A DNA stretch of 64,000 nucleotides from Somniosus microcephalus (Eukaryota): positions 20,522,001-20,586,000 of the forward strand of contig JBMRGM010000039.1 in assembly GCA_052327205.1 (NCBI GenBank). The letters run 5' to 3'. Shown here piece after piece: positions 2,516-41,074 of the stretch (positions are counted from its first letter, which is position 1; the number at the start of each line of letters is the position of its first letter). The notes beneath the pieces are model-generated. The model did not search any database. It saw only the letters and a program-made list of their open reading frames with translations, and was not told where the DNA came from. Both the position numbers and the translations under genes were made by a program.

Positions 2516-2744
2516 TGACATAAGAAAACTACGAGACACTTGGTCTAAGTGTTAAACAAGTCCTTAATCAACTGTTTTTCAACATGGAGATCTAGTTGTG
2601 TCCTTTACTAGTTCCTGCTAAAGAATGTCCTGAGCAAGCTGGGCACATGCCCGAGTATTTATACCTTCCATGGACAGCGCCACCAGCAGTCCGCCCAGTA
2701 TTATTTCGTAAGTCATTTCCACATGAATGACAACATTCATATCA
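2516..2744 (-). repeat. 3' LTR of Gypsy 1 (229 bp)
   Basis: TG...CA termini, adjacent PPT (ggcgggaagaa on the minus strand), aligns with 8436-8610. Confidence 0.9.
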
Positions 2745-5256
2745 TTCTTCCCGCCTGAAAGATGGGAAGTCTGGCAGCTTCCTTCTAACGAATTTATCCG
2801 ACTAAGAATAGACGCAGTCATTTGGATCTCCGTTGGAGGCCACAAAGAACGTCTGCTCGGACCGTGCTTTGGTCCCTTTGTTGCTTGGTTCATACCGGCG
2901 TGCTGGCAGTGTCCATGTCACATTGATCTACCTGAGGAGGACTGGGGAGATCGTGGCTCAGGGTGCGGTCCCCCACAGGCACAGAGCTAGCTTCACCCTG
3001 CTCAGTAGGCAGTGACTGACCATCGTCCTGGCTTCGGGTGGCAAGCCCGCAGGGAGCGCTCTGGGTTGATCTGGTGGAATAGCTGGCAGATCCCTTGACA
3101 TCTTGGGTAGGGCGTCATCCTCAGAGGAGCACAAGGTATTGGTGACATTAATATGGATCCCACTATCGATTGGGTCCATGGGACCGTTTGTGCAGGGAGC
3201 TGGATCCCGGAGTGACACTTTGGATTCCCGGCCATCAGGGTACCGCACATACGCGTACATGGGATTGTCAGTTCCACTAGATCAATGAGGGGATAACTCT
3301 TAGAGGATCGGACAAATCTTCGGAGCAGCACGGGGCCAGGAGCTGCCAACCATCATGGTAGGGATATCCCATGAGTGGAGCGATGCTGGAACCCAAGGAA
3401 CAGTTCGTGAGGAGTAGCATTGGTGGATTTTGAAAGAAGAGACCTGAAGGAATGCAACGCATCAGGGATCATAGTTTTCCACTGCAGGTCTGATAGCTTG
3501 CGTGACCTCAGCGCAAGACGATCAGCGTTCCAAATGATGGCATTGTATCTCTCAAGCTGTCCATTTCCAATAGGTGCTGTTTTACTTGTGGTGATTCCCT
3601 GTTGGAAAAGAAAACTTTTGAGTCCACGAACAGAGTGGATGAAATTGGCCATACCGCATAGGGTAAAGACCTGATCGAGGCATAAGATCAGTGTGGAAGT
3701 AAGCATATTGGGAGAGGGGAAAGCAAAGGGAAAGCGTGAATATTCATCCACCATAGTTAGCAAGTCTGTGTTTCGCATTGAGGGAGTAAATGGCCCTTTA
3801 ATGTCAACGCTGAGTCGCTGCATCGGCTGTGTAGCATGTATGAGTGAGCCATCCGACGGACGGAAGAATTGTGGTTTTAATTCTGCGCAAATTCTACAAG
3901 TGGAGCATGTTCTTTTCACGTCTTCCATAGAAAATGGGAGAATTTAGATCGCACAAAGTGCAACATATGGGATGGCGCAAGTCAATATGATGATCCGTAA
4001 GAGTTGAAGTTGATATGGAAGAGCAGAATGCATCCGTGAGTGCATCCGGGGCCATATTCTCATTGCCGGGTCGATAATGTATGGTGTAGCCAAAGGCTGC
4101 CAAATCCATCCTCCAGAGCTGTACTTTGTTATTCTTGACCTTTGTGCATTTCCGGTTATCCAGAGTAAAGGCCACAGAGCGCTGATCAGTTATGGGCGTG
4201 AAATGGCAACAAGTGAGAATATGACTCCATTTATGTACTGCTTCGATGATAGCCGTAGCCTCCTTCACGACAGGGGGATAATGGAGCTCGCTACCCTGCA
4301 AAGTTTTGGACAGAAATGCAATGAGTCGACCACCTTGATTTAAGGTAGCCAAGTTCGCCACCTCTGATGCATTGCACTCGACGACGAAAGGGAGATTTTC
4401 ATCAATGGGACGAAGCGTGGCTTTTTCCACTTGTTGCTTGAGGAGGTCGAAAGCTGAAATAGCCATTGCCTCCAACGGAAATGATTTAAGTGAAGCAGGG
4501 GCTGTATCTTGTCAGAAAAGGGGTGTATGCACTTCGCATTTTAGGTGAACATGCCGAGGGCCTGAGGAAGAGAGCCGAGATTCGCAGGAGGAGGGAGCTC
4601 CTGACGTGGAAGAAGTCACTCTGGATCCAGTTTGATGACACCATTGCCCACCCAGTAGCCAAGGATGTTGACTTCTGGTACTGATTAAACGGATTTGGAC
4701 ACATTTAAGTTTAATTTGCGACGACGGACAACGTCAAGAAATTTCTGGAGGTTGGCATCGTGCTCCTTCTGGTCATGACCCACAATGGTGATATGATCCA
4801 CATATGGAAAAGTGTCCATTAAGGTCTCATGTTTGACTAGGCTAGCCATCGTCCGTTGAAAGATGGCCACCCCATTGATAACCCCAAAAGGAAGGCAGCA
4901 AAACTGGCAAAGCCGACCATTGGCCTCAAAGGCCGTATATTTCTTGTCAGAGTCCTTTAATGGTACTTGATGATATGCGCTCTTTAAGTCAAAAGTTGAA
5001 AATACCCTTTAGTTGGCAAGGTTAGTGACCATGTCATCGATGCGTGGTAGTGGGTAGGCATCCAGGTCGGTATACTGGTAAATAGTTTGCGAGTCATCGA
5101 TGCAAAGACGTTTCTTGTGTTGCTTCAGAGGATTTTTAAAAATGACGACCTGAGCCCACCAGGAAGATGAACATGGCTCAATGATACCCTCCTCTAAAAG
5201 GCGAGAAATTTCTGCATCGATAAAGGATAGATCATCTTGACTGAAACGTCATGATT

Positions 5257-6962
5257 TAGAGTCATAGAGTCATAGAGTAATACAGCACGGATAGAGGCCC
5301 TTCGGCCCATCGTGTCCGTGCCGGCCATCAAGCCCTGCCTAATCTAATCCCATATTCCAGCATTTGGCCCGTAGGCTTGTATGCTATGGCATTTCAAGTG
5401 CACATCCAAATGCTTCCTAAATGTGGTGAGGGTTTCTGCCTCCACAACCCTTTCAGGCAGTGAGTTCCAGCCTCCAACCACCCTCTGGGTGAAAAAGTTC
5501 TTTCTCAAATCCCCTCTAAACCTCCCGCCCTTTACCTTGAATCTATGCCCCCTAGTTATTGACCCCTCTACTAAGGGAAAAAGCTCCTCAGCATCCATCC
5601 TATCTATGCACCTCATAATTTTGTACACCTCAATCATGTCCCCCCTCAGCCTCCTCTGCTCCAAGGAAAACAAACCCAATCTGCCCAGCCTCTCTTCATA
5701 GCCGAAGCGCTCCAGCCCTGGTAACACCCTGGTGAACCTCCTCTGCACCCTCTCTAACGCGATCACATCCTTCCTGTAGTGTGGCGACCAGAACTGCACA
5801 CAGTATTCCAGCTGTGGCCTTACCAGTGTTTTATACAGCTCCATCATAACCTCCTTGCTCTTATATTCAATGCCTCGGCTAATGAAGGCAAGTATCCCAT
5901 ATGCCTTTTTTACCACCTTATCCACCTGTTCCGCCGCCTTCAGGGGTCTGTGTACTTGCACACCCAGATCCCTCTGACCCTCCGTCTTGCCTAGGGTCTT
6001 TCCATTCATTGTGTATTCCTTTGCCTTGTTAGTCCCCCCAAAGTGCATCACCTCGCACTTTTCCGGGTTAAATTCCATTTGCCACTGTTCCGCCCATCTG
6101 ACCAACCCATCTATATCGTCCTGCAGACTGAGGCTACCCTCCTCGCTATTTACCACCCTACCAATGTTTGTATCATCCGCAAACTTACTGATCATACCCT
6201 TTACATTCATATCCAAGTCATTAATGTAGACCACAAACAGCAAGGGACCCAGCACCGATCCCTGTGGTACCCCACTGGCCACAGGCTTCCAGTCACAAAA
6301 ACAACCTTCGACCATCATTCTCTGCCTTCTGCCACTAAGCCAGTTTTGTATCCAATGTGCCAAGGCACCCTGGATTCCATGGGCTCTTACCTTCTTGACC
6401 AGTCTCCTGTGCGGGACTTTATCGAAGGCCTTACTGAAATCCATGTATACCACATCCACTGCGTTACCCTCATCTACACACCTAGTCACCCCCTCAAAAA
6501 ATTCAATCAAATTAGTCAGACATGATCTTCCCTTGACAAAGCCATGTTGACTATTCCTGATTAATCCTTGCCTCTCCAAGTGGAGACAAATTTTGTCCCT
6601 CAGGAATTTTTCCAATAATTTTCCTACCACTGATGTTAGGCTCACTGGCCTGTAGTTCCCCGGTTTTTCCCTACTACCCTTCTTGAATAATGGTACTACA
6701 TTAGCGGTTCTCCAGTCCTCTGGCACATCCCCTGTGGCCAGAGAGGTCCTGAATATATGTGTTAGAGCCCCCGCAATCTCCTCCTTTGCCTCACACAATC
6801 TCCTCCTTTGCCTCACACAGCAGCCTGGGATACATTTCATCCGGGCCTGGGGATTTATCCATTTTTAGGCCAGCTAAACCCGCCAATACCTCCTCCCTCT
6901 CGATGTTAATATGTTCGAGCATATCACAGTCCCCCCGCCCTATTTCTATGTCTACATCTACA
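5257..6962 (-). mobile_element. CR1 LINE, 5'-truncated and young, nested in the Gypsy 1 pol gene
   Basis: Open RT ORF 5344-6840; (actctatg)n tail at about 5257-5278; Gypsy sequence resumes on both sides, matching the uninterrupted homolog near 29581-29610. Confidence 0.93.
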
Positions 6963-8435
6963 TTAGTGACTATGGTCCTACATCAGCGGGAAAGATTGGT
7001 AAACAAGGAGTGTTGTCGAGCGAAGCCGCCGAAAGCACATAAAACGTTACTTTGCAAATAGTAAGCTGTGGCTTTGATCCTCCAATTCGAAAGTGAGTCT
7101 TTTCTGTTGCTACTGGAAATCCTGTCCCAGGAGCACATCACTGCATAGGTTTTTGAGCACCCCAAGCTGGGTGGAGAAATAAATGCATCCATTGAGAAGA
7201 AGGTCGACAAGACAAAACCCGGAAGAGTTGGTTGTCAGTGTCGTCAGAGCCATTGAAATTTCCCTGTCCGAGGGCTAAATACGCAGTTTTAATTTACTGA
7301 CATCCTGCTCAGTGATGAAGCTGCATGAGTCGATTAGTGCACAAAAAATGTGTCTATTTACCGAAACCTTTGTGGCTGTATGGGACAGGTTTTGGGGAAA
7401 AACAGCTGTGATGGGAGGAGGGTCAGTTTTATACATGACAGCTTTAAATTAGTAGTGGCTCTTCGGGGAGGAGCTGTGTTATAGATGACAGCTGCAACAT
7501 TAGTAGTGGCTCTTGGGGAAGGAGCAGTTTTATAGATAGCAGCTGTAACCCTAAGAGAGGCACTTGACTGACATACTTTAGAAAAGTGACCTTTCTCACT
7601 GCAATGATTACAGGTTGCATTACGAGCAGGACAATATATCCTTTAGTGAATTGCACCTCCACAGAATAAACACTTATTTTTAAACTGCCAAGATGCCGCT
7701 AGGGTAGGGTCATCATCAGCTAGGACAGAGTCGTCAACAATGAGGGCTTCTGACTGAGGCTTATCGGAGGAGTCACTAAAATTGATATCAGCAGTCCTTG
7801 CACGTGGTAAAAGGTAGGCATCAGCATTTTGTTTGCTAAGTCCAGAGAATATGCCTGGTCATAGCCAGCTTGTAACGAGGGTTTTATCCTGCAACAGACG
7901 CTGACGTATGAAGGGAGATGCAATTCCATTAATAAAAGAATCACAAATTAATTCCTCCTGGTAATGCTCAGCTGAGACAGCTTTGAGATTACAATCTTTG
8001 CTGAGCCTGCGAAGCTTTTGAAGGAATTCATCAAGTGATACCCTGGGTAGTTGTCGAGTTGTGGCCAGTAACTGCCGAGCAAAAATTTCGTTTGGGGCCT
8101 TAATATATAGTTGCTGCCGTATTTGGATAGCAGAGTCATAGTTTACAGAGTCTTTGATATAGTCAAATACATGAGGAGATACATAATTGGCAAGCATTTG
8201 TAAGTTATCAATAAAATTCTCACCACAAGCCCCGAGGAAGTTGCAGAAGCACGATACCAGTGTTTCCATACCTTAGCAGTTGTGGGTGAATTTGGGTCCA
8301 GGTCAAGATGGGTGGGGCTGAGTAGTTTCTCCAAGATGGATTGATTACTACTTTTGCTTTCCTTCTACCATTTGAGTCGTAGCCGTCTGTTCCCAAAATA
8401 ACTCAGAGCATTAAGCAAGTTTCAGTTGATTAAAT

Positions 8436-8610
8436 TGACTAAGATAACTACTAGTCACTTGGTCTAAGCGTTAAACAGGGCTTTAATCAACAGTTTTTCC
8501 TTTATTAGTTCCTGTTGAAGAATGTCCTGAGCATGCTGGGCCCATGCCCGAGTATTTATACTCTCCCTGAACAGCGCCACCAGCAGGCCACCCAGTATTA
8601 TTTCATGTCA
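8436..8610 (-). repeat. 5' LTR of Gypsy 1 (internally deleted, 175 bp)
   Basis: Aligns to 2516-2744 with deletions; followed by TSD GGAAG. Confidence 0.85.
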
Positions 8611-8884
8611 GGAAGTTTTGAGGTTGTTGTTATGCTTGTTTTCTGCTTTGCTGTTTATCTCCATGTTGTGACAACGAGGTTTGTTAGTTCATGAATTGTT
8701 GGATTTGTTTCTAATGGTTTGTGCTGACTAAACGGCACAGATTTTATAATATAAATATTTTTTAAAATCTAACTTTACATCTTTGGTCATTTTATCTGAT
8801 TGCAGCTTTGCCTGGCAATAGGTGGTGTGGGATGCTTTCAATGATGTGCTTCTTCATCCCAGAAGCCATCTTCTCTGTAAACAT

Positions 8885-10021
8885 TTAGAATCGGTGTCTT
8901 ATGAGCCATTCATGGATGGCCCTTGCTGTGGCAACATTGTGGGGCTCTCTCCCACGTTGGTGCTGCTGATCCTCCTCTTCATCCTCCACCTCCTCCTCCT
9001 CTCCCTCTTCATCTTCCTCCTCAGGTGTTGCACCAATCCCTGGTGGCAATGGCTGGGTCCTCATGATTGCAACGTTACGAAGCATGCAGCACACAACAAT
9101 GACGAGGGTGACTCGCTCGGGAGAGTTAGGCACCGCTCCTCCTGAGTGGTCCAAGCACCGGACCCGTTGTTTAAACACTCCAATCGTCTGCTCTATGAGG
9201 TTCCTTGTGGCGCTATGGCTCTCATTGCATTGCAGCTCGGCAGTGGTGTTGGGGTTACGGAGCGTTGTCATCAGCAAGGTGCAGAGTGGATAACCCTTGT
9301 CCCCGAGGAGCCATCCACTGGTTTGATGCGGTGATTGGAAGAGGTCTGCAACACCGGTCTGGCGCAGGATAAAAGTATCATGGCTGCTGCCAGGATAGCG
9401 GGCTTTGAGGTAGAGTATGAGCCGTCTGTGGTCACAGGCCAACTGGATATTCGGAGTGGAAGCCCTTGTGGTTTCGGATCACCTCTGCATTCTCATGCGG
9501 TGCCCACAATGGCACATGGGTGCAATCAATGGTGCCCTGAAGCATGGGGAAGCCCAATATCCCTGCAAAGCCACATGCACATTCGCGCTTTTTGTCCCGG
9601 GTCATGGGCATTCATGTACAGGCGTCTTCTCTTCTACAAAGCTTTTGTCAACTCTCGGATGCAGCAATGAACAGTGAACTGGGAGATATAGGGAACCACT
9701 GACTTAGAAATTTAGAGCCACAGTCACCTTCACTGCCACTGACAGAGAAGTTCTGGTCCTGAGCTGTGGATGGAGCTCTGGTTGCAGGAGGCAGCAGAGC
9801 TCAGTGACCACCTCCTTGTTGAATTGCAGCCATTGGAAACGCTGCTCCTCAGACAAATAGATATAGGAGGAGAATTGCTCCCTGAATACCCTGGGATGGT
9901 AAGGTCTCCTGTGCAGTGGCCTGATGGCCCTCCCTCTTCTGGCCACTGTTTCCACACTCGCTCTCTGCTGCCTCTGAAGGTGAAGCTGGAAGACGACGCC
10001 CCGATTTAGCGTAGCCCCCAT
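8885..10021 (-). pseudogene. Harbinger/PIF (HARBI1-like) DDE transposase, frameshifted
   Basis: Contains ARYPGSSHD, LLGDKGYPL, RNLIEQTIGVFKQR, CCMLRN and VKVTVALNF; a TIR-like end gcgaatatttcccggc lies at about 10440-10455. Confidence 0.9.
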
Positions 10022-13023: not shown

Positions 13024-13080
13024 GCAGAAGGGGAGATTTTGCAGCCTGAGAGTTGAGAGTTCACTGTGCCTGATATTGTT

Positions 13081-13549
13081 GCACCCCACAAAGATGGTGG
13101 CTCTGGAGCCTCGCGCAAATATGGTTACACTGGCGCCCCGCACAAAGTTGGCGGCTCTGGTGCCCAGCACAAACATGGTGGAACCCGCTCCATGCACAAA
13201 GATGGCGACTCTGGGGCTCTGCACAAAATGGTGGCACCTGCGCTCCACACAAAGGTGGAGGCTCTGGAGACCCGCACAAAATGGCGGGACCCACGCCCAG
13301 CATAAAGATGGCAGAACCCTCTCACAGCAGAAATATTGCGGCTGTGTAGCCCCGCACAAAAATGGTGGCTCTGCGGCCTAACACAATGATGGCGGCTTCG
13401 GGTCACGGGACAGAAATGGCATATCTGGGCCCCTGCCCAGCAGGAAGATGGCGGCTCTGGGGACCCGCACCAATTAGGTGGCTCTGGTGCCCGCACAATT
13501 ATGGCGGCACTGTGGTCCAGCATTAAGATGACCGTACCCTGCACAAAGA
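13081..13549 (+). repeat. 27-28 bp minisatellite (ccgcacaaagatggcggctctggggc), left part
   Basis: About 17 diverged units counted by cacaaa spacing. Confidence 0.9.
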
Positions 13550-14337
13550 TACAAAAAGAAAATACTGCATATGCTGGAATTCTGAAATAGCAACATAAAA
13601 TGCTGTAGACACTGGGCAGGTCAGGCCGCATCTGTGAAGAGAGAAACAGCGTTAACGATTCAGGTCGATGACCTTTCGTCAGAATTGGAAAAAAGCAGGA
13701 AAAGGAACAGCTTTTAAAGCAAGTTTAGGGGCAGGGAAATGGGGGAGCGCATGAAATAACAAAAGGGAAGATCTGTGATAGGATAGAAGGCAGGATAATG
13801 AAAGAATCATTAAGAGATATTCAAGGCAAAAGTGGATGGTAATGGATAAGATTAAGAAACAAAGGCTGGCGCTAGATGAAGTGTGAATAGCACTGGTAGA
13901 ATGAAAGACAGCTGCCATGTGGGAGAGATTACCAAAGGCACAACAAAAAGTGTGGATATAAAAATATATAAAGGAAAGGGGCCGAGGATATGATCTGAAA
14001 TTGTTGAACTCTATGTAGAGTCCAGAGGGCTGTAAAGTGCCTAATCGAAAGATGAGGTGCTGTTCCTCGAGCTTACGCTGAGCTTCCATTGAACAATGCA
14101 AGAGGCCGAAAACAGTGAGGTCTGAGTGGGAGTGGAGCAGTGAATTAAAGTGACAGGCGACTGGAAGCTCAGCATCCCCCTTACAGTCTGAACGGAGGTG
14201 TTCCACAAAGTGGTCACCCACTCTAAGTTTGGTCTAACCCAATGCAGAGGAGACCACATCGTAAGCAGCGAATAGAGTATACTAAATTGCAAGAAGTACA
14301 AGTAAATCGCTGTTTCACCTGGAAGGGATCTTTGTGG
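13550..14337 (-). mobile_element. Penelope-like element, 3' part (GIY-YIG endonuclease end plus 3' UTR), inserted in the minisatellite
   Basis: Reads FTCTSCNLVYSIRCLRCGLLCIG...EHLRS...PVACHFNS..H....RKLEEQHLIFRLGTLQPSGL. Confidence 0.85.
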
Positions 14338-15017
14338 ACCAGCACAAATATGGCGGCTCTGGGGCCCCAAACAAAGAAGGCAGCTCCGGGGCCCCGAAAA
14401 AAGAAGGCCGCTCTGGGGCCCAGCACAAAATGGCGGCAGCCGTGCCCCGCACAATGATGGCAGCTCTGGGTCCCCGAACAAAAGTGGAGGCACCCGTGTC
14501 CCGCACAAAGATGGCAGCACTGTGGTCCCGCACAAAGATGGCGGCTCCGGTGCCACGCACAAATATGGCGGCTCTAGGGGCCCAGCACAAAGGTGGCGGC
14601 TCTGGGACCCCGCACAAAGATGCTGGCTTTGTGGGGCCACACAAGGATGGCGGATCTGGGGCCCTGTGAAGAAATAGCAGCTCCGGGGGCCCCACTCAAA
14701 CATGGCAGCTCTGGGGCACCGCAAAAAGATGGCAGCTCTGAGGGCCCCACAACAAGATGGTCGCTCTGAGTCCCTGGAAAAAGATGGGGCTCTGGGGCCC
14801 AGCACAAAGATGGCACCTTTGGGGACATGGGACAAAAATGGAGTCCCTGGCCCCTCCTGCCCACCACAAAGATTGCGGCACTGGAACCCCGCACAAAATG
14901 GCGGCTCCGGCGCTCCTCACAAAAATCGCAGCACTGGTGCCCAGCACAAAGGTGGTGGCTCTGGGGTCCCGCACAATGATGATGGCTCTGGGTATCCGCA
15001 GAAAGATGGCGGCTGCC
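14338..15017 (+). repeat. 27-28 bp minisatellite, right part
   Basis: About 24 units of the same motif as 13081-13549. Confidence 0.9.
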
Positions 15018-15158
15018 ACTCGGGGCCTTTCCCTGGCGAGCATTGGAGGGCGGCAGCCAGAGGCCCGGTTATTCTGAGAACAAGCTGTGAGGCTGTGCAG
15101 CTGGCCCGGCCCACAGGGGCCTGAACAGGCCAGCCCAGGAAGGAGGAGGCCTGGCAAC

Positions 15159-18069: not shown

Positions 18070-21000
18070 GACTACAGCGAATGGTGTGCGGTATATCAAA
18101 ATGTAAGAAACGATTACAGTGAGGGATGTATCTGAGTGCTACAGTGAGTCGTGTGGGGTATATCAGAGTGTTACAGTGAGTGATGTGGGGTATATCAGAG
18201 TTTTTCACTGTTGCATGTGGGGTATATAAGAGGGTTTCAGCGATCGTGCGGGTTGCATCAGTGTTACAGTCTGGTGTGTGAGGTATATCAGAGTGCTACA
18301 ATGAAAGGTGTGGGGTAAGGTCCCACACAAAATGTTGGGGAACAAAATTGGGGCACATGGAATTTGGGTAATACAGTAGCATGGATTGAGATTTGGTTAA
18401 CAGCCAAAAAACAAAGAGTAGGGATAAACGGGTCTTTTTCAGAATGGCAAGTTGTAACTAGTGGGGCACCGCAAGGATCGGTGCTTGGGCCCCAGCTATC
18501 CACAATTTATAACAATGATTTGGATGAGGGGACTAAATGTAACATTTCCAAATTTGCTGATGGCACAAAGCTAGGTGGCAATATCTGTTGCGAAGAGGAT
18601 GTGATGAGGCTTCAAGGGGATCTCGACAGGCTCGATGAGTGGGCGAGAACATGTCAGATGGAATATAATCTGGATAAATGTGAAGTTATCCACTTTGGTA
18701 GAAAAAACAGGAAGGCAGAGTATTTGCTCAATGGGGAAAGATTGGGGAATGCAAATGCTCAAAAGGACCTGGGAGTCCTTGTACATGAGTTACTGAAAGT
18801 GAATGTGCAGGTGCAGCAAGCCAATAGGAAGGCAAATGGTATGCTTGCCTTCATTACGAGAGGATTTGAGTGCAGGAGTAAAGAAGTCTTACTCCAATTA
18901 TATAGGGCCTTCGTGAGACCACAACTGGAGTACTGTGTACAATTTTGGTCTCCTTACCTAAGGAAGGAAATACTTGCCATAGAGGGAGTGCAAGAAAGGT
19001 TCACGAGATTGATACCTGGTATGGCTGGAATGTCGTATGAGAAGAGATTGAGTAAACTAGGCCTGCATTCTCTTGAATTCAGAAGATTGAGAGCGGATCT
19101 CTATGAAGCATACAAAATTATTACAGGACTTGATAGCGTGGATGCTGGGAGGATGTTTCCGTTGGCTGGGGCGTCTAGAACCACGGGCCAAAGCCTCAGC
19201 ATAAAGTGCAGGCCATTCAGGGCTGAGATGAGAAGAACTTTCTTCACACAGACGGTGGTGAACCTGTGGAATTCTCTACCCCAGAGGGCTATGAAGGCTC
19301 AGTCATTGGGTATATTTAAAACGGAAGTTCATAGATTTCTGACTAATTTGGGCATCAAGGGATATGACAGTTAGGCCGGTGAATGGAACTGAGGCAGAAG
19401 ATCAGCCATGATCTCATTGAATGGCAGAGCAGGCTAGAAGGGCCGAACACAGTGTTATGTTGAGGGGTGTGGGGTTTATCAGCATGTTGCAGTGAGGTGT
19501 GTGAGGCATATCACAGTGTTACAGTGAGTCGAGTGGGGTATATCCATGTTACAGTGAGGGTTGTGGGTTATATCAGTGTTACAGTGAGGTGTGTGGGATA
19601 TATCAGTATGTTACAGTGAGAGATGTGGGGTATATCAGAGTTACAGTGAGGGGTGTGGGGTATATCAGAGTGTTACAGTGAGAGGTGTGGGGTATATCAG
19701 AGTGGTTCAGTGAGAGGTCTGGGGTATATCAGAGTGCTTCTTTGAGGTGTGTGGTTATATCAGAGTGTTTCCACGAGTGGTAAATCGGTGTGTTACAGTG
19801 AGGGGTGTGTGGGGTATATCAGAGTGTTATAGTCAGGGTAGTGGGTTTACATCACAGTGTTACAGTGAGGGGTGTGGACTATAAAAGTTTGTTACAGTAT
19901 AGGGTGTGGGTTTTTATCAGAGTGTTACATTAAGGGGTGTGGGTCATATCAGTGTAACAGTTATGGGTGTTTGATTTATCAGAGTGTTACAGCGAGGAGT
20001 ATGGTGTATATCAGAGAATGCTCCAGTGAGGGGCATGGGTTATAATGGCGTGTTACAGTGGGAGGTTGAGTTATGTAAGAGAGTGTTACAGTCAGGAGTG
20101 TGTGGCATGTCAGAGTGTTAAAGTGAGAGGTGTTATTTATATCAGAGTGTTACAGTGAGGGGTGTGGGATACATCAGTGTGTTACAGTGAGGTGCGTGGG
20201 GTATAGCAGATTATTATAGTTATGGGTGTGGGTTATATCAGAATGTTACTGTTATGGTTGTTGGGTGTATCATCAGAGTGTTACAGTGAAGCGTGTTCGG
20301 TATCTCAGCGTGTTACAGTGAGAGATGTGGGAATATCAGTGTGTTACAGTGAGTGGTGTGGCATATATCAGAGTTACAGTGAGGGGTTTGGGGTATATCA
20401 GAGTTTTACAGTGAGAGGGGTGGGGTATATCAGAGTGCTTCAGTGAGGGGTGTGGGGTATATCAGAGTGCATCATTGGGGAGTTTGGGTATGTCAGAGTG
20501 TTACAGTGAGGGGAGTGGTGTATAACAGATTGTTACCACGAGGGGTATATCGGTGGGTTACAGTGAGGGGTGTGTGGGGTATATCAGAGTGTTTTAGTCA
20601 GGGGAGTGGGTTTAAATCAGATTGTTACAGTGAGTGGTGCGGTGTATAAAAGTGTGTTAAAGTCAAGTATGTGGTTTTATATCTGAGATTTACATTGAGG
20701 GGTGTTGGATATATCAGAGTGTTACAGTGAGGGGTCTGGTATATATCAGTGTTACAGTTATGGGCGCTTGGCATATCAGAGTGTTACAGAGAGGGGTACG
20801 TTGTATATGAGAGAGTGTTACAGTGAGGGGCATGGGTTATAATGGTGTGCTACAGTGAGAGGTTGCGTTATGTAAGAGAGTGTTACAGTCAGGAGTGTGC
20901 GGTATGTCAGAGTGTTAAAGTGAGAGGTGTGATTTATATCAGAGTGTTAAAGTGAGGGGTGCGGGATATATCAGAATGTTACTATTAGGGGTGAGGGGTG

Positions 21001-21330
21001 CATCATCAGACTGTTACAGTGAGGCGTGTTCGGTATCTCAGAGTGTTACAGTGAAGAGTGTGGGGTATATCAATGTGTTACAATGAGAGTTTTGCGGTAT
21101 GAAAGAGAGTGGGTTGTATCTGAGTGTTGCAGTGAGCGGGTTGAGTTAGATCAGAGTGTTACATTGAGGGGTGCTGAGTATTTCAGAGTGTTAAGGTGAG
21201 GTGAGTGAGGTATATCGGTCTGTTACAGTGAGAGCTTTGTGATATGTAAGAGAAGAATAAAGTGAGGGTATATCAGAGTTTTAAAGTGAAAGGCTTGGGG
21301 TATATCTGATTGCTAACGTGAGGTGAATGG
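18070..21330 (+). repeat. 32-bp satellite (gtgaggggtgtggggtatatcagagtgttaca), interrupted by a CR1
   Basis: Dozens of diverged units at 18070-18315 and 19450-21330. Confidence 0.92.
18316..19448 (+). mobile_element. CR1 LINE 3' part
   Basis: Open 336-aa RT ORF 18364-19374 followed by a CR1 3' UTR (gatcagccatgatctcattgaatggc). Confidence 0.9.
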
Positions 21331-23061: not shown

Positions 23062-23290
23062 TGACGTAATAAAACTCACCACACACTTGTTTCGAGTATA
23101 AAGCAAGGCCTTAAACAAATTGTATCAAATCATGGAGGTCTAGTAGTACTTCACTAGTTCCTGTATTACAAAATGTCCCCGGGCAAGCTGGGCCCACGCC
23201 CGAGTATTTATACTCCTTGGATGGCACGACCAGCTGGCCACACAATGTGATTACATGAGTCGTTTCCTCATGATGATGAGATTAATAGCA
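23062..23290 (-). repeat. 3' LTR of Gypsy 2
   Basis: TG..CA termini, 229 bp, next to the PPT. Confidence 0.92.
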
Positions 23291-23759: not shown

Positions 23760-26700
23760 TAGAACATAAGAACATAAGAACAATAGAAATAGGAGCAGGA
23801 GTAGGCCAATCGGCCCCTCGAGCCTGCTCCGCCATTCAATAAGATCATGGCTGATCTGATCCTAACCGCCAATCCACTATCACCGAACCATCTCCTGAAT
23901 CTAACAGAATTAGACACACGAAATAGGAGCAGGATCAGGCTACACGGCCCCTGGGCCTGCTCTGCTACCCACAGGGCCAAGACTGATCTGAACCTAGACT
24001 CATGTCCAAATTCCTGCCCGCTCCCCATAACCCTTAATTCCCTTTACTGCTAAGAAACTGTCAATTTCTGTTTTAAATTTATGTAATGATGTAGCTTCTA
24101 CAGCTTTTTGGGGCAGCATATTCCATGGACCTACCACGCTCTGAGTGAAGTAGTTCCTCCTCATCTCAGTTTTGAAACAGTAGCCCCTTATTCTAAGACT
24201 ATGCCCTCTAGTTCTCGTTTCACCCATCATCGGGAACATCTTCCCTGCATCCACCCGATCAAAACCCTTCACAATCTTACATGTTTCAATAAGATCGCCT
24301 CTCATTCTTCTGAACTCCAATGAGTAGAGTCCCAATCTACTCAACCTCTCCTCACATGTCCATCCCCTCATCCCCGGGATTAACCGAGTGAACCTTCTTT
24401 GTACTGACTCGAGAGCAAGTATGTCCTTTCTTAAGTATGGACACCAAAACTGTTCGCAGTATTCCAGGTGCGGTCTCCCAAATACCTTGTGCAACTGAAG
24501 CAATACCTCCCTATTTTTATATTCTATCCCCCTAGCATGAAAGCCAACATTCCATTGGCCTTCTTAATCACTTGCTGCACCTGCAGACTAACCTTTTGAG
24601 TTTCGTGCACCAGGACCCCCAGATCCCTTTGTAATTCAGTACTTTCCAGTTTCTTGCCATTAAGATGATAACTTGCTCTACGATTTTCCTGCCAAAGTGC
24701 ATAACCTCACACGTTCCAGCATTGTATTCCATCTGCCAAATCTCTGCCCACTTAATTAGCCTGTCTATGTCCCCTTGCAGGTTTTTTATGTCCTCCTCAC
24801 TCGCTACTTTCCCTCCCATCTTAGTATCATCTGCAAACTTTGATATGTTACACTCGGCCCCCTCCTCCAAATCGTTAATATAGATTGTAAAGAGTTGGTG
24901 ACCCAGCATTGACCCCTGCGGAACACCACTAGTTACTGATTGCCAGTCTGAGAATGAACCATTTATCCCAACTCTCTGCCTTCTGTTAGCTAGCCAATCC
25001 TCTATCCATACCAGAATATTACCCCCAATCCCGTGATGTTTTATCTTAAGCAATAATCTTTTGTGTGGCACCTTGTCAAATGCCTTTTGGAAGTCTAAAT
25101 ACACTACATCCACTGGTTCCCCTTTATCCACCCTTTATGTTACTTCCTCAAAGAACTCCAGCAAATTTGTCAAACATGACTTCCACTTCATAAAACCATA
25201 CGGACTTTGTCCGATTAAATTATGATTATCCGAATGTCCTGTTACTGTCTCCTTAATAATGGACTCCAAAATTTTACCTGCCACAGATGTTAGGCTAACC
25301 AGTCTATATATCCAGCCTTCTGTCTATTGCCCTTTTTAAATAAGGGTGTTACATTAGCAGTCTTGCAGTCTGCCGGGACCTTTGCCGAGTCCAGGGAGTT
25401 TTGGAAAATTATTACCAATGCATCCACAATCCCTACCGCCACTTCCCTCAAGACCCTTGGATGTAAGCCATCAGGTCCAGGTGATTTATCCACCTTGAGT
25501 CTCATTATTTTACCGAGTAAAACTTCTTTAGTGATTTTGATCGTGTTTAGCTCCTCCCCCCCTTTAGCCCCCTGTTTGTCCAGTGTTGGGATATTCTTAG
25601 TGTCTTCTACTGTAAAAACTGATATAAAATATTCATTCAGTGCTTTTGCCATCTCCATATTTCGCACCATTAATTTCCCAGTCTGATCCTCTAATGGACC
25701 AACATTTACTTTAGCCACCCATTTACTTTTTATATAACTATAAATACTCTTACAATTTTTTAAATATTTTTTGCTAATTTACTTTCATAATCTATCTTCC
25801 CTTTCTTAATCAATCTTTTTGTTATTTTTTGTTGTCTTTTAAAGTTTTCCCAATCCTCTATCCTCCCACTAGATTTGGCTACCTTATATGCCCTTATTTT
25901 TAGTCGAATACTATCCTTAATTTCTTTACTGAGCCACGGATGGCTGAATTTTCTTTTACACCCTTTTCTTCTCAGTGGAATATATTTTTTTTGGAAGTTG
26001 TAAAATAACTCCTTAAATGTACACCACTGATCATGTATCGTCTTACCCTTTAATCTATATTCCCAATCCACTCTACTCATTTCCGGTCTCATACCTTCAT
26101 AGTCTCCTTTATTCAAGCTTAGCACGCTTGTTTGAGATCCAACCTTCTCACCCTCTAATTGAATATGGAATTCAACCATGTTATGGTCACTCATTACAAG
26201 GGGATCCTTTACTAGAACATTTTTAATTAATCCTGTCTCGTTACACAGGAACAGATCCAAGGTTGCTTGCCCCCTGGTCGGTTCAGTTACATACTGCTCA
26301 AGAAACCCATACCTAATACCCTCAATGAACTCATCCTCAAGGCTGTACAATTTGATTTGTACAGTTAATATGATAGTTAAAATCCCCCATAATTATAGAT
26401 GTTCCCTTATTACAAGCCTCAACTATTTCCTGATTGATATTCCATCCAACAGAGTTGCCACTGTTCGGAGGCCTATAGAGTACGCCCACTAGTGTTTTTT
26501 TCGCCTTGTTATTCCTTACCTCCACCCAAACTGTTTCATTATCCATATTTTTTAACCCAATATCATTTCTCTGTATTACAGTGATTCCTTCCTTAATTTA
26601 CATAGCCACCCCACCTCCCCTTCCTTCCTGCCTGTCCTTCCTGATCGTTCAGTAACCTGGTACGTTTAATTTCTAGGCATTGTCATTCTGCAGCCATGTT

Positions 26701-27554
26701 TCCGTAATGGCCACAAGATCATACCCATATGTAGTTATTTGCGCCATTAACTCATCTATTTTGTTACGAATGCTACGTGCATTCAGATAGAGAACTTTCA
26801 AAGATGTTTTGTGACACTTAGTTCCTGCTTTTGCCCTTTTTATTACTTTACGTTTTACTCCATACCTTCTGCCCCTTCCTGACACGCTCTGATTTTTCTT
26901 TTCCCCACTGCTACCTAAGTCTATGACCTTCTCTGTTGTCATTTTTATTATTTGCTCTCTAGGAACCTCCCCCCGACTAGTTAGTTTAAAGCCCTCTCTA
27001 CAGCCCTAGTTATATGATCCGCCAGGACTCTAGTCCCAGCACAGGCCAAGTGAAGCCCGTCCCAACGGAATAGCTCCCTCCTGCCCCAGTACTGGTGCCA
27101 GTGTCCCAGGTAGCTAAACCCATTTCTCCCACACCAGTCTTTGAGCCATGCATTTAACACTCTAATTTTATTTGTCCCAGCCAAATTCGCTCGTGGCTCA
27201 GGTAATAATCCCTTGTGGTTCTGCTTTTTAATTTGACCCCTAGCTGCTCAAACTCCCTCAGCAGAACCTCCTTCCTTGTCCTATCTATGTCGTTGGTACC
27301 AACATGGACCACGACAACTGGATCCACCCCCTCCCACTCCAAGTTTCTCTCCAGTCCAGAGGAGATTTCCTTAACCCTGGCACCGGGCAGGCAGCACAAC
27401 CTTCGGGACTCTCGCTCTCGGCTGCAAAGAACTCTATCTATCCCCCTAACGATACTATCCCCTAACACTACAAAATTTCTTTTAACTCCCCCCACTTGAA
27501 TGGCCCCCCGCTCCACGGTGCTGTGGCCAGGTTACTCATCCTCCCCGCAGTCCC
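23760..27554 (-). mobile_element. Long CR1 LINE (ORF1 esterase, endonuclease, RT, tail) nested in the Gypsy 2 integrase
   Basis: ORF1 has GDSIVR, LPGA, HVGTND and DGLH (SGNH esterase); ORF2 has LNARSI, ITETWL, YRPPNS, GDFN and SDHN; RT motifs; (agaacata)n tail. Confidence 0.92.
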
Positions 27555-30500
27555 TGGGATTAAGGCCCGTGAGTTCCTCCTCGGCGATGAGGGGATCGTT
27601 TTTGAAAGATCGGACGAATCTTCGGAGCAGCATGTGGCCGGGAGCTGCCAACCATGTTGGTAGGGACGCCCCATGAGTGGAGCAACGCTGAAACCTGAAG
27701 AATCGCTCGTGAGGCGTGACATTGGTGGACGTAGAAAGAAGAGACCTGATGGAATGCAACACGTCACTGAGCACAGGTTCCCACTGCTGGTCTGGTAGGT
27801 TGCGTGACATCCGTGCAAGATGAACAGCGTTCCAATTGGGAGCATTGTATCTCTCAACCTGTCCGTTACCGATGGGATGGTATGCTGTTGTTTTACATGT
27901 GGCGATTCCCCGTTGGGAAAGATAATTTTTGAGTTCGCTTGACATGTAGGAGGGACCCCGATCAGAGCGGATGAAATTGGCCGTACCGCAAAGGGGAAAG
28001 ATTTGATCAAGGCATTTGATCACTGTGGAAGTAAACATATTGGGACAGGGGAAAGCAAAGGGAAAGCATGAATATTCGTCCACTATAGTAAGTAAGTAGG
28101 TGTTTTGCGTTAAGAAAGGCAATGGCCGTTTAAAGTCAATGCTGAGTCGCTGCATAGGCTGCATTGCATGTATGAGCGAGCCATCCAATGGATGGAAGCC
28201 TTGCGGCTTTAATTCAGCACAAATTCTACAGGAGGTGCATGTTCTTTTCACATCTTCTGTAGAAAGTGGTAGATTTTTAGATCACACAAATTGCAACATA
28301 TGGGTGACGCCAGGATGGCATAAGTACGTATGAAGATCCACAAGAGTCGAAGTTGATATAGAAGAGCAGAATGCCGGTGGGAGGGTATCCGGGGCCACAT
28401 TCTCTTTGCCAGCTCGATAATTTTTTGGTTTATCCAGAGCCGGCCAATTCCATCCTCCAGAGTTGTATTTTGTTATTCTTGATCTTACTGCGTTTCCGGT
28501 TATCCAGCATAAAGGCCATGGAGCACTGATTGTTTATAAGTGTGAAATGGCGATGAGTGAGAAAATGACTCCATTTATGTACAGCTTCGATGATGGCCGT
28601 AGTCTCCTTCTCGACAGGTGGATAATGGAGCTCGCTACCCTGCAAAGTTCTGGGCAGAAATGCAACGGGTCGACCACCTTGATTCAAGATAGCAGAGATC
28701 ACCACCTCCAATGCATCACACTCGACCACGAAAGGACGATTTTCTTCAATGGAGCTAAGCGTGGCTTTTTCCAGTTGTCGCTTGAGGAGGTTGAAAGCTG
28801 AAATAGCCATTGCACCAATGGAAATGACTTTGTGTGAAGCAGGGGCTGGATCTTGTCAGAGAAGTGGGTTATCCACTTTGCATAATAGGCGAACATGCTG
28901 GCTGCCCGATGAAGAGAGCCGAGATTCGTAGGGGGAGGGAGCTCCTGAAGTGGACGAAATCGCCCCGGATCTGGTTTGATGACAGCGTTGCCCACCCAGT
29001 AGCCAAGCATGTTGACTGATGGTACTGATTTCACAGATTTGGACTCATTTAAGGTTAAGTTGCGATGAATGCCAAAACATTTCTGGAGATTGACATTATG
29101 CTCCTTCTGGTCATGACCAGCAATGGTGATATTATCTAGATATGGAAAAGTGCCCGTTAAGATGTCTTGTTTGACTAGGCTATCAATTGCCCGTTGAAAG
29201 ACGGCCACCCCATTGGTGACCCCAAATGGAAGGTGACAAAATTGATAAAGCCGACCATTGGCCTCAAAGGCCACATAATCTTTTTCAGAATCCTTTAACG
29301 GTACCTGATAATATGCACTCTTCAAATCAAAAGTTGAAAATACCTTTTAGTTGGCAAGGTTATCGTCCATATCATTGATGCGTGGTAGTGGGTAGGCATC
29401 CAGGTTGGTATACTGGTAAATAGTTTGCGAGTAATCGATGCAAAGACGTTTCTTGTATTGCTTCAGACGATTTTTAACAACGGCAACTTGGGCCCGGCAG
29501 GAGCATGAACATGGCTCAAAGATACCATCAGCTGGAAGGCGAGAGATTTCTGCCTCGATTAAGGATCGATCATCTTGTCTGAAACGTCGGATTTTAGTGA
29601 GTATCGGCTTACATCGGGGGGAAGGATTGGCAAAACAAGGAGGGCTCGTCGAACAAAGCTGCCAAAAGCGCACAAAACGGTACTTTGGAAATAGTATGCT
29701 CTGGCTTTGACCCTCCAAATTCGAAAGTGAGTCTTTCGTGTTGTTTCTGGAAATCCTGTCCCAGGAGCACATCACTGCATAGGTTTTCGAGCACTCCGAG
29801 CCGGGTGGAGAAATAAGTGCGGCCATTGAGAATAAGGTCGACACGACAGAAGCCGGAAGAGTTGGTGGTCAGTGTCGTCAGAGCCATTGCAATTTCCCTG
29901 TCCGAGGGGTAAATATGCAGTTTTAACTTTCTGACAGCCCGCTCACTAATGAAGCTGTCAGAGCTGCATGAGTTGATTAGTGCGCACAAAATGTGCCGAT
30001 TTACTGAAAACTTCGTTGCTGCATGGGACAGACATTGGGGAAAATCAGCTGTGATGGGATGAGGAACAGTTTTACCCTTGGCAGCTGTAACGTTAGCAGT
30101 GGTCCTTGGGTGACTACTGGTTTCATAGATAGCAGCTGTAACCTTAGTAGTGGCTCTTCGGGGAGCAGCAGTTTTATAGATAGTGGCAGCAAAACTAACA
30201 GGAGCTCTCGACCGGTATACCTTAGAAAAGTAGCCTTTCTTACTAACAGATGCTCTTGACTGGCATACCTTAGAAAACTGACCTTTCTTGCTGCAATGAT
30301 TGCAGGTTGCGTGACGAGCAGGACAATATTTCCGATAATGGAACACACCTCCACGGAAGAAACACTTCCTTACAGATTGCCAAGGTGCCGCTAGGGCGGG
30401 GTCTTCATCAGTGAAGGCTTCTAGGGTAGAGTTGTCATCCGCTAGCTTAGAGTCATCATCAGTGAGGGCTTCCGCCCAAAACCTATTGAATGAGTCATTC

Positions 30501-31154
30501 AAAGTGATAGCAGCAGCCCGTGCACGAGGTAAAAGATAGGTATCTGCATTTCACTTTGCTAAGTCCAGGGAACATGCCTGGTCATAGGCAGCCTGTAACT
30601 CGAGGGTTTTATTCTCCAACAGACGCTGGCGTATGAAGGGTGACACAATCTCATTAATAATGGAATCACAAATTAACTCCCCCTCGCACTGCTCAGCTGT
30701 GAGAGCTTTCAGATTGCAATCCTTGCTGAGCCTGCAAAGTTTCTGAAGGAATTCGTCGAGTGATTCCATTGGTTTTGTCGAGTTGTGGCCAGTAGTTGCC
30801 GAGAAAAAAATTCGTTTGGGGCTTTAACATTCTAATATTAGGATAGCAGAGTCATAGTCTGCACAGTCTTCGATATAGTCAAACACATGAGGAGATACAT
30901 AATTGGCAAGTATCTCTAATTTATCAGGAACATTCTCACCACACATCCTGAGGAAGTTGCTGAAGGTACAATACCAGTGTTTCCATACCTTATCAGTTGT
31001 AGGTGAATTCGAGTTCAGTTCAAGACGGGCGGGTCTGAGTGGTTTGTCCACGATGGTTTTCTTACTACACCGGAGTTCCCTTCTGCAGTTGAAGTCTTAG
31101 CTGGCTGTTCCCGAAATCACTGAGAGCGTGGAGTCGATATCAAGTTGATTAAAT

Positions 31155-31382
31155 TGACGTAATAAAACTCTCTACGCACTTGGTTTGAGTATAAAGCAAG
31201 GCTTTATCAACTTGTTTCAATACATGGAGGTCTATTTGTACTTCACTAGTTGCTGTCTTACAAAATGTCCCTGGGCAAGCTGGGCCCACGACCGAGTATT
31301 TACACTCCTTGGATGGCGCCACCAGCTGGCCGTCCAGTGTTTTATCTCGAGTCATTTCTTCATGATGATGAGATTCATAACA
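31155..31382 (-). repeat. 5' LTR of Gypsy 2
   Basis: TG..CA termini, 228 bp, followed by the TSD. Confidence 0.92.
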
Positions 31383-35847: not shown

Positions 35848-38633
35848 TCTATCATCATCTATCTATATATATAAACGGATCGATCTGTCTGTCTATCTGT
35901 CTGTCTGTCTGTCTATCTGTCTGTCTGTCTGTCCTCACGTGTGCGTCTGTCCGGCTATGTGCTCGAAAATTATAGAGCGTACCGACACGTGCGTTACGTT
36001 GAAAGAAAGCTTACCAATCCGAAACGGTCGAAAGCGTATTTACGTTTCGGCCGGACAAAAATCGCGCCCGCGGTATCCCAAAAACGTTCAACATTCCACT
36101 CATTAGCATCTCATTATCCGCTCATTAGCGATAGAGTGACCTCGAGGTCGACCAAACGTACGCCGGGTTGCTGGCGCGTGCGGCCGGGCCCTCCTACGGT
36201 CGAGTGATGGGACGATTGACCAATCCTACGCTTTGGTCACATGACGTTCGACCAATCGGCGCGTGTGTGGGCGGGCCTTATCGTTCTGAACCGAGGTGAG
36301 TCGCCGCCATCTTGATTCCAAACTTTTCCTTTCTTTTTCCCACTTTCTGCGCGTTTATTTTCTAATTTACAGTTCCAGCAAGAAAAGGTTGCTTTTAAAA
36401 CACAAATTGTTTTTAAAAAAAGTTAATTAATTTGTAAATCTTTTGTCTAAGCTCTATAATTCTCGTACCTTTCACCGTTTTTACAGGCCCGGAGCCTAGG
36501 CTTCTCCAACTGCCAGCAGTGCAACTCTAGACCCAGGCTCCCGGCCTAGACAGAGACAAACACTGGCAGAGGGGAGAGGGTGTGCTGCCTCAGCTCCATT
36601 CCTGGGGTCAGTAGGTGGGGAGGCTTCATAAGCAACTGGGGTAGGTCGCAAGCCCCGAATAATAATCTGAAGATCCTGTGTTTGCAGCTGAGGAAATTTC
36701 TTCTGCTGACAGCCCCAAGGTAACGGCAGCCATCTATGTTAAAGAGAGCGAAAAGTTTCAGTGCGACGCCATTTTGATTCAGTGTGTAACAGAGTGCATG
36801 CGCGGCCATGTTCGTACAGGAACATAGAGTGGGTGGGGCGTCGTTGCTTCCAATCGGGTCCTGGTGACCGGGACAGACAATCGACTGTTTGGGCGGGGCC
36901 TAATCTTTCCAACTGAAAAGCAAGCGGCGGCCATTGTTTGTGATAAAACACACTGAGGTGAGCACCCCTTTTTTAATAAAACGACTGGTGAGGTTGTAAA
37001 GTGTATGTTATAGAAAGATCTACCAAAAATGTTTTATATGTACAGGACACTTTGTGCTATCCGGAGGTGAGCTATCCGGCAATCTGGAGCCACCGCAAAA
37101 ATCAGCAGCTGTTTTTCGTTCTTTGTTTTTTTTGCTTTGTTTGAACAGTCAAGCTGTGCAAGGTCTGCAGCTATAGCAACAGCTTTAGCTAAAGAGCTTT
37201 CGGGCCACATCCAGTGTTTAGAAGCTGATGCTTAGCAACAGTGTTTGTTGTTAAATACAGAGATAAGATTCTCCGTATCTCTCAACATTAACTCTGGAGA
37301 GTCCTTGAGGCAAGGCATCAGCTCGGTCCCAAGGGTGCCGTATAGCACAAAGTTTCCTGTACTTTAAGTTTATCTCCCCCCTCCCTTTCCACCACCCACT
37401 GCTCCCGCACCCCCTTCCCCCCAAACCCACTTCCCCCCACACACCCCCCACACGCCGTTCCTCCCCACCCCCCTCCCCCCACACCCCCCAACCCCTCAGC
37501 CCCCACCCCGCCTCCACCCCAACCCCCCTCCCCCCCACACACACTTCGCCCCAACACCCCCTTCCCCTCCTCCCAACCCCCTTCCGCAACCCCCTTCCCC
37601 CCTCCCGTTCACCGCCTTTCCCCCCCTCTCTACACCTCCTCCCGCTCCCCACCCCCTCCTGCCCGCTTCCCCTCCCTCCCACACACCTCTCCCCCCCACA
37701 CCCCCCTTCCCCCCACCCCTCCCCTCCCCCTACCCAGCCCCCCTTCCCCATCACCCTCACCTCCCCCTCCCCAAACCCCCTTTCCAATCCCCCTCCCCTC
37801 ACCCCCTCCACACTCCTCTCCTCCTCCCCACACACCCTTCCCTCACCCCCACCCCTCCCCTCCCACCCAGCCCTCCCCCTCCCATCACCCCTCCCCTCCC
37901 CCTCCCCCCTTCCCTCCCCCTCTCCCTTTCCCCCTCCCTCCCATCCCCTTACCCCACTCCACCCTCCCTCCCACTCCCACACCCTCCCCCACTCCCTCTC
38001 TACCCTCCCATTCCCCCACCCCCTCCCCCCTCCCCCTCCCCCCTCCCCATCCCCCCTCCACTCATCCCCCCTCCCCCCAAGTCGCTCTCTCTCTTCCCCC
38101 AGTCGCTCTCTCTCTCTCTTCCCCCCCAGTCGCTCTCTCTCTCTTCCCCCTGAGTCACGCTCTCTTTCACTCTTCCCCCCCAGTCGCTCTCTCTCTCTTC
38201 CCCCCCAGTCGCTCTCTCTCTCTCTTCCCCCCCAGTCGCTCTCTCTCTCTCTTCCCCCCCAGTCGCTCTCTCTCTCTCTTCCCCCCAGTCTCTCTCTCTC
38301 TCCCTTCCCCCCAGTCGCTCTCTCTCTCTTCCCCCCCAGTCGCTCTCTCTCTCTCTTCCCCCGCAATCGCTCTCTCTCTGTTCCCCCCAGTCACTCGCTC
38401 TCTTCCCCTCCAGTCACTCGCTCTCTTCCCCCCCAGTCGCTCGCTCTCTTCCCCCCCCAGTCGCTCTCTCTCTTCCCCCCCAGTCGCTCTCTCTCTTCCC
38501 CCCCAGTCGCGCTCTCTCTCTCTCCACCCCCTGTCATGCTCTCTCTCTCTCCCCCCAAGTGGCGCTCTCTCTCTCTCTTCCAACAGCAGCATCCCCTCTA
38601 AAAAGCCTCGGCACCGCCGGGAACTCCAGCTAG
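35848..38633 (+). mobile_element. Non-autonomous Helitron, copy A1 (complete, ~2.8 kb)
   Basis: 5' A|TC..tctatatatataaa with (tctg)n; 3' hairpin ctcggc-acc-gccggg (38607-38621) then CTAG at 38630-38633; no TSD or TIR. Confidence 0.88.
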
Positions 38634-40390: not shown

Positions 40391-41074
40391 TTAGAGTCAT
40401 AGAGTTATACAGCACAAAAAGAGTCCCTTCGGCCCATCGTGTCTGTGCCGCCTTCAAGCCGTGTCCAATCTAATCCCATTTTCCAGCATTTGGTCCATAG
40501 CCTTGTATGCAATGGCATTTCAAGTGCTCATCCAAATGCTTCTTGAATGTTGTGAGGGTTCCTGCCTCTACCACCCTTTCAGGCAGTGAGTTCCAGATGC
40601 CAACCACCCTCTGGGTGAAAAAGTTCCTCCTCAAATCCCTTCTAAACCCCCTGCCCCTTACCTTGAATCTATGCCCACTTGTTATTGACCCCCCTACTAA
40701 GGGGAAACGTTCCTCTTTATCTAACCTATCTATGCCCCATATAATTTTGTACAACTCAATCAGGTCCCCCCTCAGCCTTCTTTGCTTCAAAGAAAACAAC
40801 CCCAGCCTGTTTAGTCTTTCTTCATAGCTGAGGCGCTCCATCCCAGGTAACATCCTGGTGAATCTTCTCTGAACCCTCTTCAAAGAAATCACATCCTTCC
40901 TATAGTGAGGCGACCAGAACTGTACACATTACTCCAGCTGTGGCCTTACCAGCGTTTTGTACAGCTCCATCATAACCTCCCTGCTCTTATATTCTATGCC
41001 TCAGCTAATGAAGGCAACTATCCCATATGACTTTTTAACCACCTTATCTACCTGTTCCACTGCCTTGAGGGATC
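40391..41074 (-). mobile_element. CR1 3' fragment (same family as 5257-6962) inside Helitron A2
   Basis: agagtcatagag tail; ORF 40470-40892 ends ..GYGPNAGKWD. Confidence 0.9.

Follow-up and report, generated by a model that had tools for sequence, protein, structure and literature searches.

A Ty3/Gypsy primer-site position complementary to its own LTR and a clade that probably self-primes

The primer-site position of Gypsy 1

Minus-strand priming requires a 3'-OH adjoining U5, and the element Gypsy 1 raises the question of which RNA supplies it. Gypsy 1 lies on the minus strand at 2516-8610 of the window, the whole 64,000-nucleotide stretch of Somniosus microcephalus DNA that was analyzed. 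The order gag-PR-RT-RH-IN between two LTRs, TG...CA ends, a polypurine tract and a 5-bp TSD, CTTCC (8611-8615 and 2511-2515), identify it as a Ty3/Gypsy element, and the top match among solved structures is Ty3 Gag-Pol (E 9e-103). The 175-nt 5' LTR (8436-8610, minus strand, TG...CA) carries deletions relative to the 229-nt 3' LTR (2516-2744, minus strand); the LTR ends were set by the TSD together with loose read ends at 2516 and 2744. Between them on the same strand are a gag (CCHC) and protease region (6969-8400), an inserted LINE fragment (5256-6968, approximate ends; RT reading frame 5344-6864) that we take to be CR1-like, an RT, RNase H and integrase region (2757-5255) and the polypurine tract (2745-2756), assigned from its sequence. 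Both coding regions contain stops and frameshifts. Gypsy 1 is a decayed, dead copy and its value rests with its clade, whose elements measure ~4.4 kb with the LINE excluded. Full-length relatives have a single ORF of ~1200 aa, and the named sources are crustaceans and cnidarians.

The PBS position of Gypsy 1 has no TGG. The end of the 5' LTR is followed by one A (8435) and then by TTTAATCAACTG (8434-8423, minus strand). An earlier note on this DNA had pointed out that this sequence is complementary to a motif inside the LTR, and the pairing was confirmed: tttaatcaac at 8482-8491 (plus strand) is the exact complement of gttgattaaa at 8425-8434 over 10 nt, and the copy in the 3' LTR (2564-2574) matches 8423-8433 at 11/11. 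The distance given in the note, ~46 nt, was measured as a gap of 47 nt between the arms. A match of at least 10 nt arose in 16/20,000 shuffles of the Gypsy 1 5' LTR, a chance of about 0.0008. Gypsy 1 itself interrupts the duplex at two places, 8492 in the 5' LTR, which is mismatched, and 2563 in the 3' LTR. Two raw RNA runs from a related species (X21 and X22) bear on both positions. The pairing letter at 8492 is present in 175/178 and 165/171 reads (run X22), and at 2563 in 418/425 and 398/398 reads. A primer built by splicing was considered and set aside as unneeded; the genomic LTR already pairs with no gap. In 14 reads of run X22 there is a 35-nt skip at 2699-2735 whose ends are not GT-AG. 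Similar to the deletion of the Gypsy 1 5' LTR, it is probably a genomic variant.

A second copy of the same family, Gypsy 2, lies on the minus strand at 31382-23062 (TSD ATACC). Its 5' LTR (31155-31382, minus strand) carries the motif CAAGTTGATAAA at 31214-31203, and its PBS position (31141-31153, minus strand) reads TTTAATCAACTTG. An extra T in this PBS position is matched by an extra A in the 5' LTR motif, which has lost one other base. The motif copy in the 3' LTR (23062-23290, minus strand) has decayed.

Other repeats accompany the two copies. LINE fragments lie in both (5256-6968 and about 23800-27560), related LINE pieces occur elsewhere in the window, and one at 40392-41075 is 87% like the insert in Gypsy 1. 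A DDE_Tnp_4 (Harbinger-type) transposase remnant sits beside Gypsy 1 at 8885-9478 (minus strand); further DDE_Tnp_4 sequence is at 61389-61979 (minus strand), where the similarity is seen around 61643-61912. At 52567-53067 the Gypsy clade is represented once more, by a short remnant of RT and protease. Long minisatellite arrays occupy 13076-15031, 18085-21251, 37409-48561 and 62103-62564, with units of ~27, 32, 22-23 and 33 nt.

Covariation of the pairing across the clade

A gag alignment search of metagenomes was used to collect relatives, and the best 80 of 125 confirmed loci were taken. Together with Gypsy 1 and Gypsy 2 these make 82 elements, 75 with enough upstream sequence and 36 non-redundant. 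Viral contigs scanned for the clade gave 32 pattern matches, 0 of them confirmed, and the ESM Atlas returned only eukaryote gag clusters, none named. Upstream of gag, an unguided search for the longest fully paired duplex landed mostly on CA-N followed directly by TTTA. In the common design, a variable stretch with TAAA at its end is followed in order by (G/A)CC, a loop of 24-54 nt, CA, one base and the complement of the variable stretch.

For counting, the PBS was anchored on the CA-N-T pattern and the best register chosen, with cross-family pairs treated identically. Pairing at 9/11 or more positions was found in 31/36 non-redundant elements, and full 11/11 pairing in 20/35 anchored elements vs 15/1,190 cross-family pairs. 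The CA-N-T anchor favors the constant TTTA, so the evidential weight falls on the variable positions. The 31 pairing elements form 22 clusters at 70% identity and carry 21 distinct 11-mers. With one member taken per cluster, self-pairing was 22/22 at position 5, 21/22 at position 7 and 19/22 at position 12, vs 0.33, 0.29 and 0.25 across clusters. The excess of self-pairing over cross-cluster pairing fades by positions 17-18; the duplex is longer than 11 nt (median 16), with a pairing potential of 12-18 bp.

A MAFFT alignment of 22/31 pairing elements (L007, L015, L025, L028, L045, L051, L053, L060 and L078 left out) gave the same picture. Pairing was found in 93.4% of 351 cells, with changes on both sides in 14/16 pairs, a level reached by 0/500 shuffles; slid registers gave 29-49%. 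The stem described for Gypsy 1 covaries across the clade, its complementarity conserved by compensatory change.

No TGG was found near the LTR end among the anchored clade elements. Mag-type controls have TGG in 4/4 and self-pair over only 3-4 nt, some of them with little LTR sequence. Eight loci with LTR pairs locate the site relative to the LTR end, which lies exactly one base before it in three and within 7 nt in four more; the remaining locus is truncated. The lack of a tRNA-type PBS combined with covarying complementarity makes self-priming likely, and we consider it very probable that the clade self-primes in some form. The pairing is genuine, extends through the clade and far exceeds what chance would give; it represents a variant of an established way of priming.

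Five of the 36 elements fail the pairing test (L005, L014, L018, L043 and L064). L043 and L064 look like degraded copies whose families also include intact members (L080, which pairs over 16 nt, and L030), L018 has a truncated gag with unrelated sequence upstream, and L014 pairs at 8/11. L005 (1-119) encodes an intact RT with no clear self-match upstream of gag, which points to either a true exception or chimeric sequence where the contig begins.

Position of the primer in the transcript

The LTR arm of the duplex ends at a poly(A)-type hexamer. AATAAA or ATTAAA ends within one base or less of the duplex edge in 22/31 pairing elements, and in 19 of the 22 having one it is the sole such hexamer between -100 and the LTR end; the other 9/31 have no canonical hexamer at the cut, yet keep the pairing. 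The three bases past the duplex edge are G/A in 30/31, C in 28/31 and C/T in 31/31, and never pair with the LTR end. The putative self-primer in the Gypsy 1 5' LTR is 8482-8493 (minus strand), with ATTAAA (8487-8482) at its end, and the inferred cut falls between 8482 and 8481, just past ATTAAA. Judged from its sequence, this ATTAAA is likely the poly(A) hexamer of Gypsy 1. The earlier note had instead placed the motif after an A(A/G)TAAA, but the AATAAA at 8501-8506 is peculiar to the Gypsy 1 copy: position 8505 differs in 87/93 and 154/155 reads of related species, and Gypsy 2 has AGTGAA in its place. With the likely poly(A) hexamer at its own end, the motif is placed in R rather than U5. 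The fold-back suggested in the note is retained and its assignment to U5 is not.

The note had also put the site internally, downstream of a TATA-like box, which is plausible with TATA at -101 from the inferred cut. The TATAAATA box of Gypsy 1 is at 8553-8560 in the 5' LTR and at 2656-2663 in the 3' LTR (both minus strand); the inferred cut is 101 nt downstream of the latter. TATA[AT]A starts between -135 and -90 in 6/28 LTRs vs 0.77 expected, and since the six include Gypsy 1 and Gypsy 2, members of one family, fewer are independent. The same motif occurs at -55 to -30 in 0/29 LTRs, where 0.58 matches were expected and absence says little. Most clade LTRs have no TATA. The stretch from -140 to -21 is A-poor; an A-poor stretch between TATA and AATAAA is described for some retroviral LTRs (PMC3601003). 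A, G and T at positions 11, 10 and 9 before the cut occur in 21, 23 and 25 of 31 elements, an initiator-like arrangement. A pyrimidine tract plus YAG lies 9-69 nt upstream of the inferred cut in 11/28 LTRs vs 5.6 expected. Such acceptor-like tracts are seen in the L015, L022, L002, L034, L021 and L014 LTRs, most clearly at the L021 and L014 3' ends, and from their sequence could mark an LTR intron, a trans-splice acceptor or terminal-exon definition.

The 5' stretch is covered by 687 and 3,089 reads of the two RNA runs and the 3' LTR by 757 and 2,774. Reads of both strands are present, which probably reflects solo LTRs within other transcripts. Among the matches listed, neither run contains a start or end pile-up inside the LTR or poly(A) loose ends. 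A rise in the sense/antisense ratio near 2577 was discarded, being seen in X22 and absent from X21.

Across 30 local folds the duplex has a mean pairing probability of 0.91. A hairpin just past the cut is weakly supported by modeling: 21/30 folds exceed the control (mean 0.66 vs 0.38 for loop-shuffled sequence), Gypsy 1 is without it, and a separate test gave p<0.05 in just 4/31. The Gypsy 1 leader folded alone forms the duplex with a stability not beyond that of shuffles (z -1.2), and the best fold of the Gypsy 2 leader does not contain it. Counterparts of the extra duplexes of the Tf1 pretzel were not detected, either for the downstream arm (p<0.05 in 4/31, median p 0.53) or for the LTR-end arm (p<0.05 in 2/29, median p 0.50).

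The reading that we favor, tentatively and at a little short of an even chance, is priming by an internal segment of the 5' copy of R. This segment would pair with the primer site by fold-back. Cleavage immediately past the AAUAAA or AUUAAA hexamer, by analogy with Tf1 likely by the element's own RNase H, a domain that the clade encodes, would expose a 3' end from which minus-strand synthesis begins, one base off the LTR. With transcription directed by the TATA, 101 nt ahead of the cut, the cap would precede the paired segment by ~55-60 nt. Strong-stop DNA would cover the cut to the LTR end, leaving for the first strand transfer only the overlap between cut and poly(A) site. The same duplex would hide the promoter-proximal poly(A) signal, and copying of the primer during plus-strand synthesis could hold site and LTR in step. 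The observed basis of this model is the lack of TGG, the covarying pairing, the 3' edge at the hexamer, the mostly (G/A)CC sequence that follows, and the position one base off the LTR end. Against it stand the 9/31 elements without a hexamer, the A-G-T triplet, which could give a Tf1-length primer of 11 nt, and the long 5' leader on the primer, which would be an unpaired tail at the second strand transfer.

In a strict Tf1-type mechanism, transcription would start at the 5' edge of the duplex and the primer would be the first 11-18 capped bases, by coincidence ending in the poly(A) hexamer, with a very short R. The A-G-T triplet 11-9 nt before the cut, present in 21-25/31 and as TCAGT in several, fits such a start and would give a primer of 11 nt, the length stated for Tf1 in PMC7175516. 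The lack of TATA in most LTRs fits it too, and a cap-ended primer would halt plus-strand copying cleanly. Initiators usually do not have a purine at -1. Position 12 is a purine in 15/31, unlike that usual base, and pairing goes on at 12-16 nt, with position 12 paired in 19/22 and its sequence unconserved. In the Gypsy 1/2 family the TATA is 101 nt upstream, with none at about -41, and the splice-acceptor-like tracts upstream also count against this start. No fixed DPE-like site was found across families; AGACC at +28 relative to the CAGT A was considered as one but is specific to Gypsy 1 (1/31 at that offset) and was rejected. On balance a start at the duplex edge is rather unlikely.

It is improbable that the 3' copy of R primes instead, its RNA 3' end trimmed to the hexamer with loss of poly(A) and annealed to the PBS in cis or trans. 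Since the likely poly(A) hexamer is part of the motif, the motif would be in R at both RNA ends, and sequence alone cannot separate the 5' from the 3' copy, but the 5' copy is only 24-54 nt off and is predicted to occupy the site. A narrow range of loop lengths would be needless for a distant 3' primer, and no read 3' end lies at the hexamer in the two RNA runs, among the matches listed.

The duplex might serve only to hide the promoter-proximal poly(A) signal, with priming by something else. It covers the hexamer in 22/31 elements, where that hexamer is usually the sole one in the LTR, and it can form just at the RNA 5' end. Pairing nevertheless persists in the nine elements without a canonical hexamer, such as L016 and L051, its edge is fixed one base off the LTR end, which occlusion does not need, and no other primer site is present; we regard this reading as quite improbable.

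Priming by a host RNA (tRNA, half-tRNA or another small RNA), with the LTR match secondary or due to chance, is very improbable and, on the sequence evidence, largely refuted by covariation: half-tRNA priming exists in copia lineages (PMC6317226), but 21 different 11-mers in 22 lineages each track their own LTR, so the site is not the partner of a fixed host RNA, the site has no TGG, chance matching is about 0.0008 for Gypsy 1 alone, the three Rfam matches at 8300-8700 are all far under threshold, and a tRNA gene search across the 64-kb window found none.

Relation to known self-priming elements

An RT-RH tree of 43 rows was built from 22 clade, 10 chromovirus, 4 Mag-type, 2 errantivirus-like, 1 env-bearing and 4 caulimovirid-like sequences; its rows include no named reference, and the outgroup rows, Mag-type included, bear labels that we assigned from domains and characteristic motifs. 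The earlier note had weighed the element against Tf1/sushi and Mag. All 22 clade rows, Gypsy 1 and Gypsy 2 included, form one group (100/100) on a long stem (1.52), apart from the chromovirus and Mag-type rows; Tf1 and sushi are absent from the tree. The 10 chromovirus rows cluster without the Gypsy 1 clade (99/97), as do the four Mag-type rows (99/97). Neither a sister placement to chromoviruses (p-AU 0.22) nor one to the Mag-type rows (p-AU 0.38) was rejected, and so an independent origin of self-priming, judged from sequence, is likely but unproven. The Mag-like gag that the note had recognized holds for gag, whose profile scores 65, 61, 39 and 9 bits on the four Mag-type elements vs 6 on chromovirus, and not for RT/RNase H, which are separate. 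The chromodomain PF00385 was found in 0/120 listed homologues and is absent in P0003 and P0008; it is present in most chromovirus matches.

Tf1 obtains its 3'-OH by RNase H cleavage of its self-duplex. The accessible portions of PMC7175516, PMC4600332 and PMC10085805 describe Tf1 and Tj1 as having no tRNA site and a post-LTR sequence complementary to the LTR, and state that in Tf1 a cut is needed for the 3'-OH; PMC10085805 adds the pretzel, two extra duplexes around the PBS. The Gypsy 1 clade has the same trait, post-LTR sequence complementary to its own LTR with no tRNA site, and resembles Tf1/Tf2 of Schizosaccharomyces pombe, Tj1 and Tf1/sushi elements in pol order as well. It differs from Tf1/sushi in having no chromodomain, a separate RT clade and no pretzel duplexes, and by chromodomain, RT position and pretzel its sequences are not those of a Tf1/sushi member. 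The duplex is 11 bp in Tf1 and a median 16 bp in the clade; the Tf1 primer is the RNA 5' end, whereas that of the clade may be internal and ends in a poly(A) hexamer. A chromodomain Gypsy from a viral collection, L084 (1-140), has a 10-nt self-match 87 nt upstream of its primer site and clear of its AATAAA; in this it is of Tf1 type and differs from the Gypsy 1 clade.

Self-priming is also predicted for plant Tcn1 (gypsy) and TAR (copia), which have an LTR complement of at least 10 nt located 0-5 nt past the LTR; the available text of PMC6317226 does not state an overlap with a poly(A) signal. The criterion is the same as for the Gypsy 1 clade, in other lineages and hosts, and since TAR is a copia element the trait arose outside Tf1/sushi. 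Odd non-tRNA sites in print include those of Dictyostelium Skipper and bivalve TRIMs. In the accessible literature (GyDB, Repbase and subscription papers aside), which included PMC5006619, PMC6934838, PMC11042837 and PMC13524379, self-priming is stated only for Tf1/sushi, Tj1, Tcn1 and copia TAR, and the hexamer-ended self-primer signature of the Gypsy 1 clade was not found described there.

The Mag lineage is like the Gypsy 1 clade in its similar gag, single ORF of ~1200-1300 aa, short LTRs and lack of a chromodomain; the Mag-type elements differ in their TGG sites (4/4) and their own RT clade. Cigr-1 has a single ORF and is compact, ~4.2 kb long, its LTRs measuring about 245 nt. The Gypsy 1 clade (~4.4 kb without the LINE) is similarly compact. 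The Cigr-1 clade of Ciona is found in molluscs too, according to PMC6238403. No Cigr-1 or MolGy reference sequence was found in the available supplements of PMC6238403 and PMC13524379, and the Gypsy 1 clade may already carry one of these names.

It is possible rather than probable that an animal-wide clade evolved self-priming apart from Tf1/sushi, with an internal primer that ends at the poly(A) hexamer and no pretzel, so that one duplex would silence the 5' poly(A) signal and one cut would make both the primer and the strand-transfer overlap. To our knowledge, fission-yeast Tf1 is the only element with proven self-priming, a trait regarded as a mark of Tf1/sushi chromoviruses, with one predicted plant copia case. 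The signature of the Gypsy 1 clade, present in nearly every intact member, would widen self-priming to a large animal lineage and would suggest that dependence on tRNA has been lost repeatedly. With primer end and hexamer in fixed register, the position at which the RNA is cut is sharply predicted. Annotation tools that demand a tRNA site will miss or mis-score elements of this clade.
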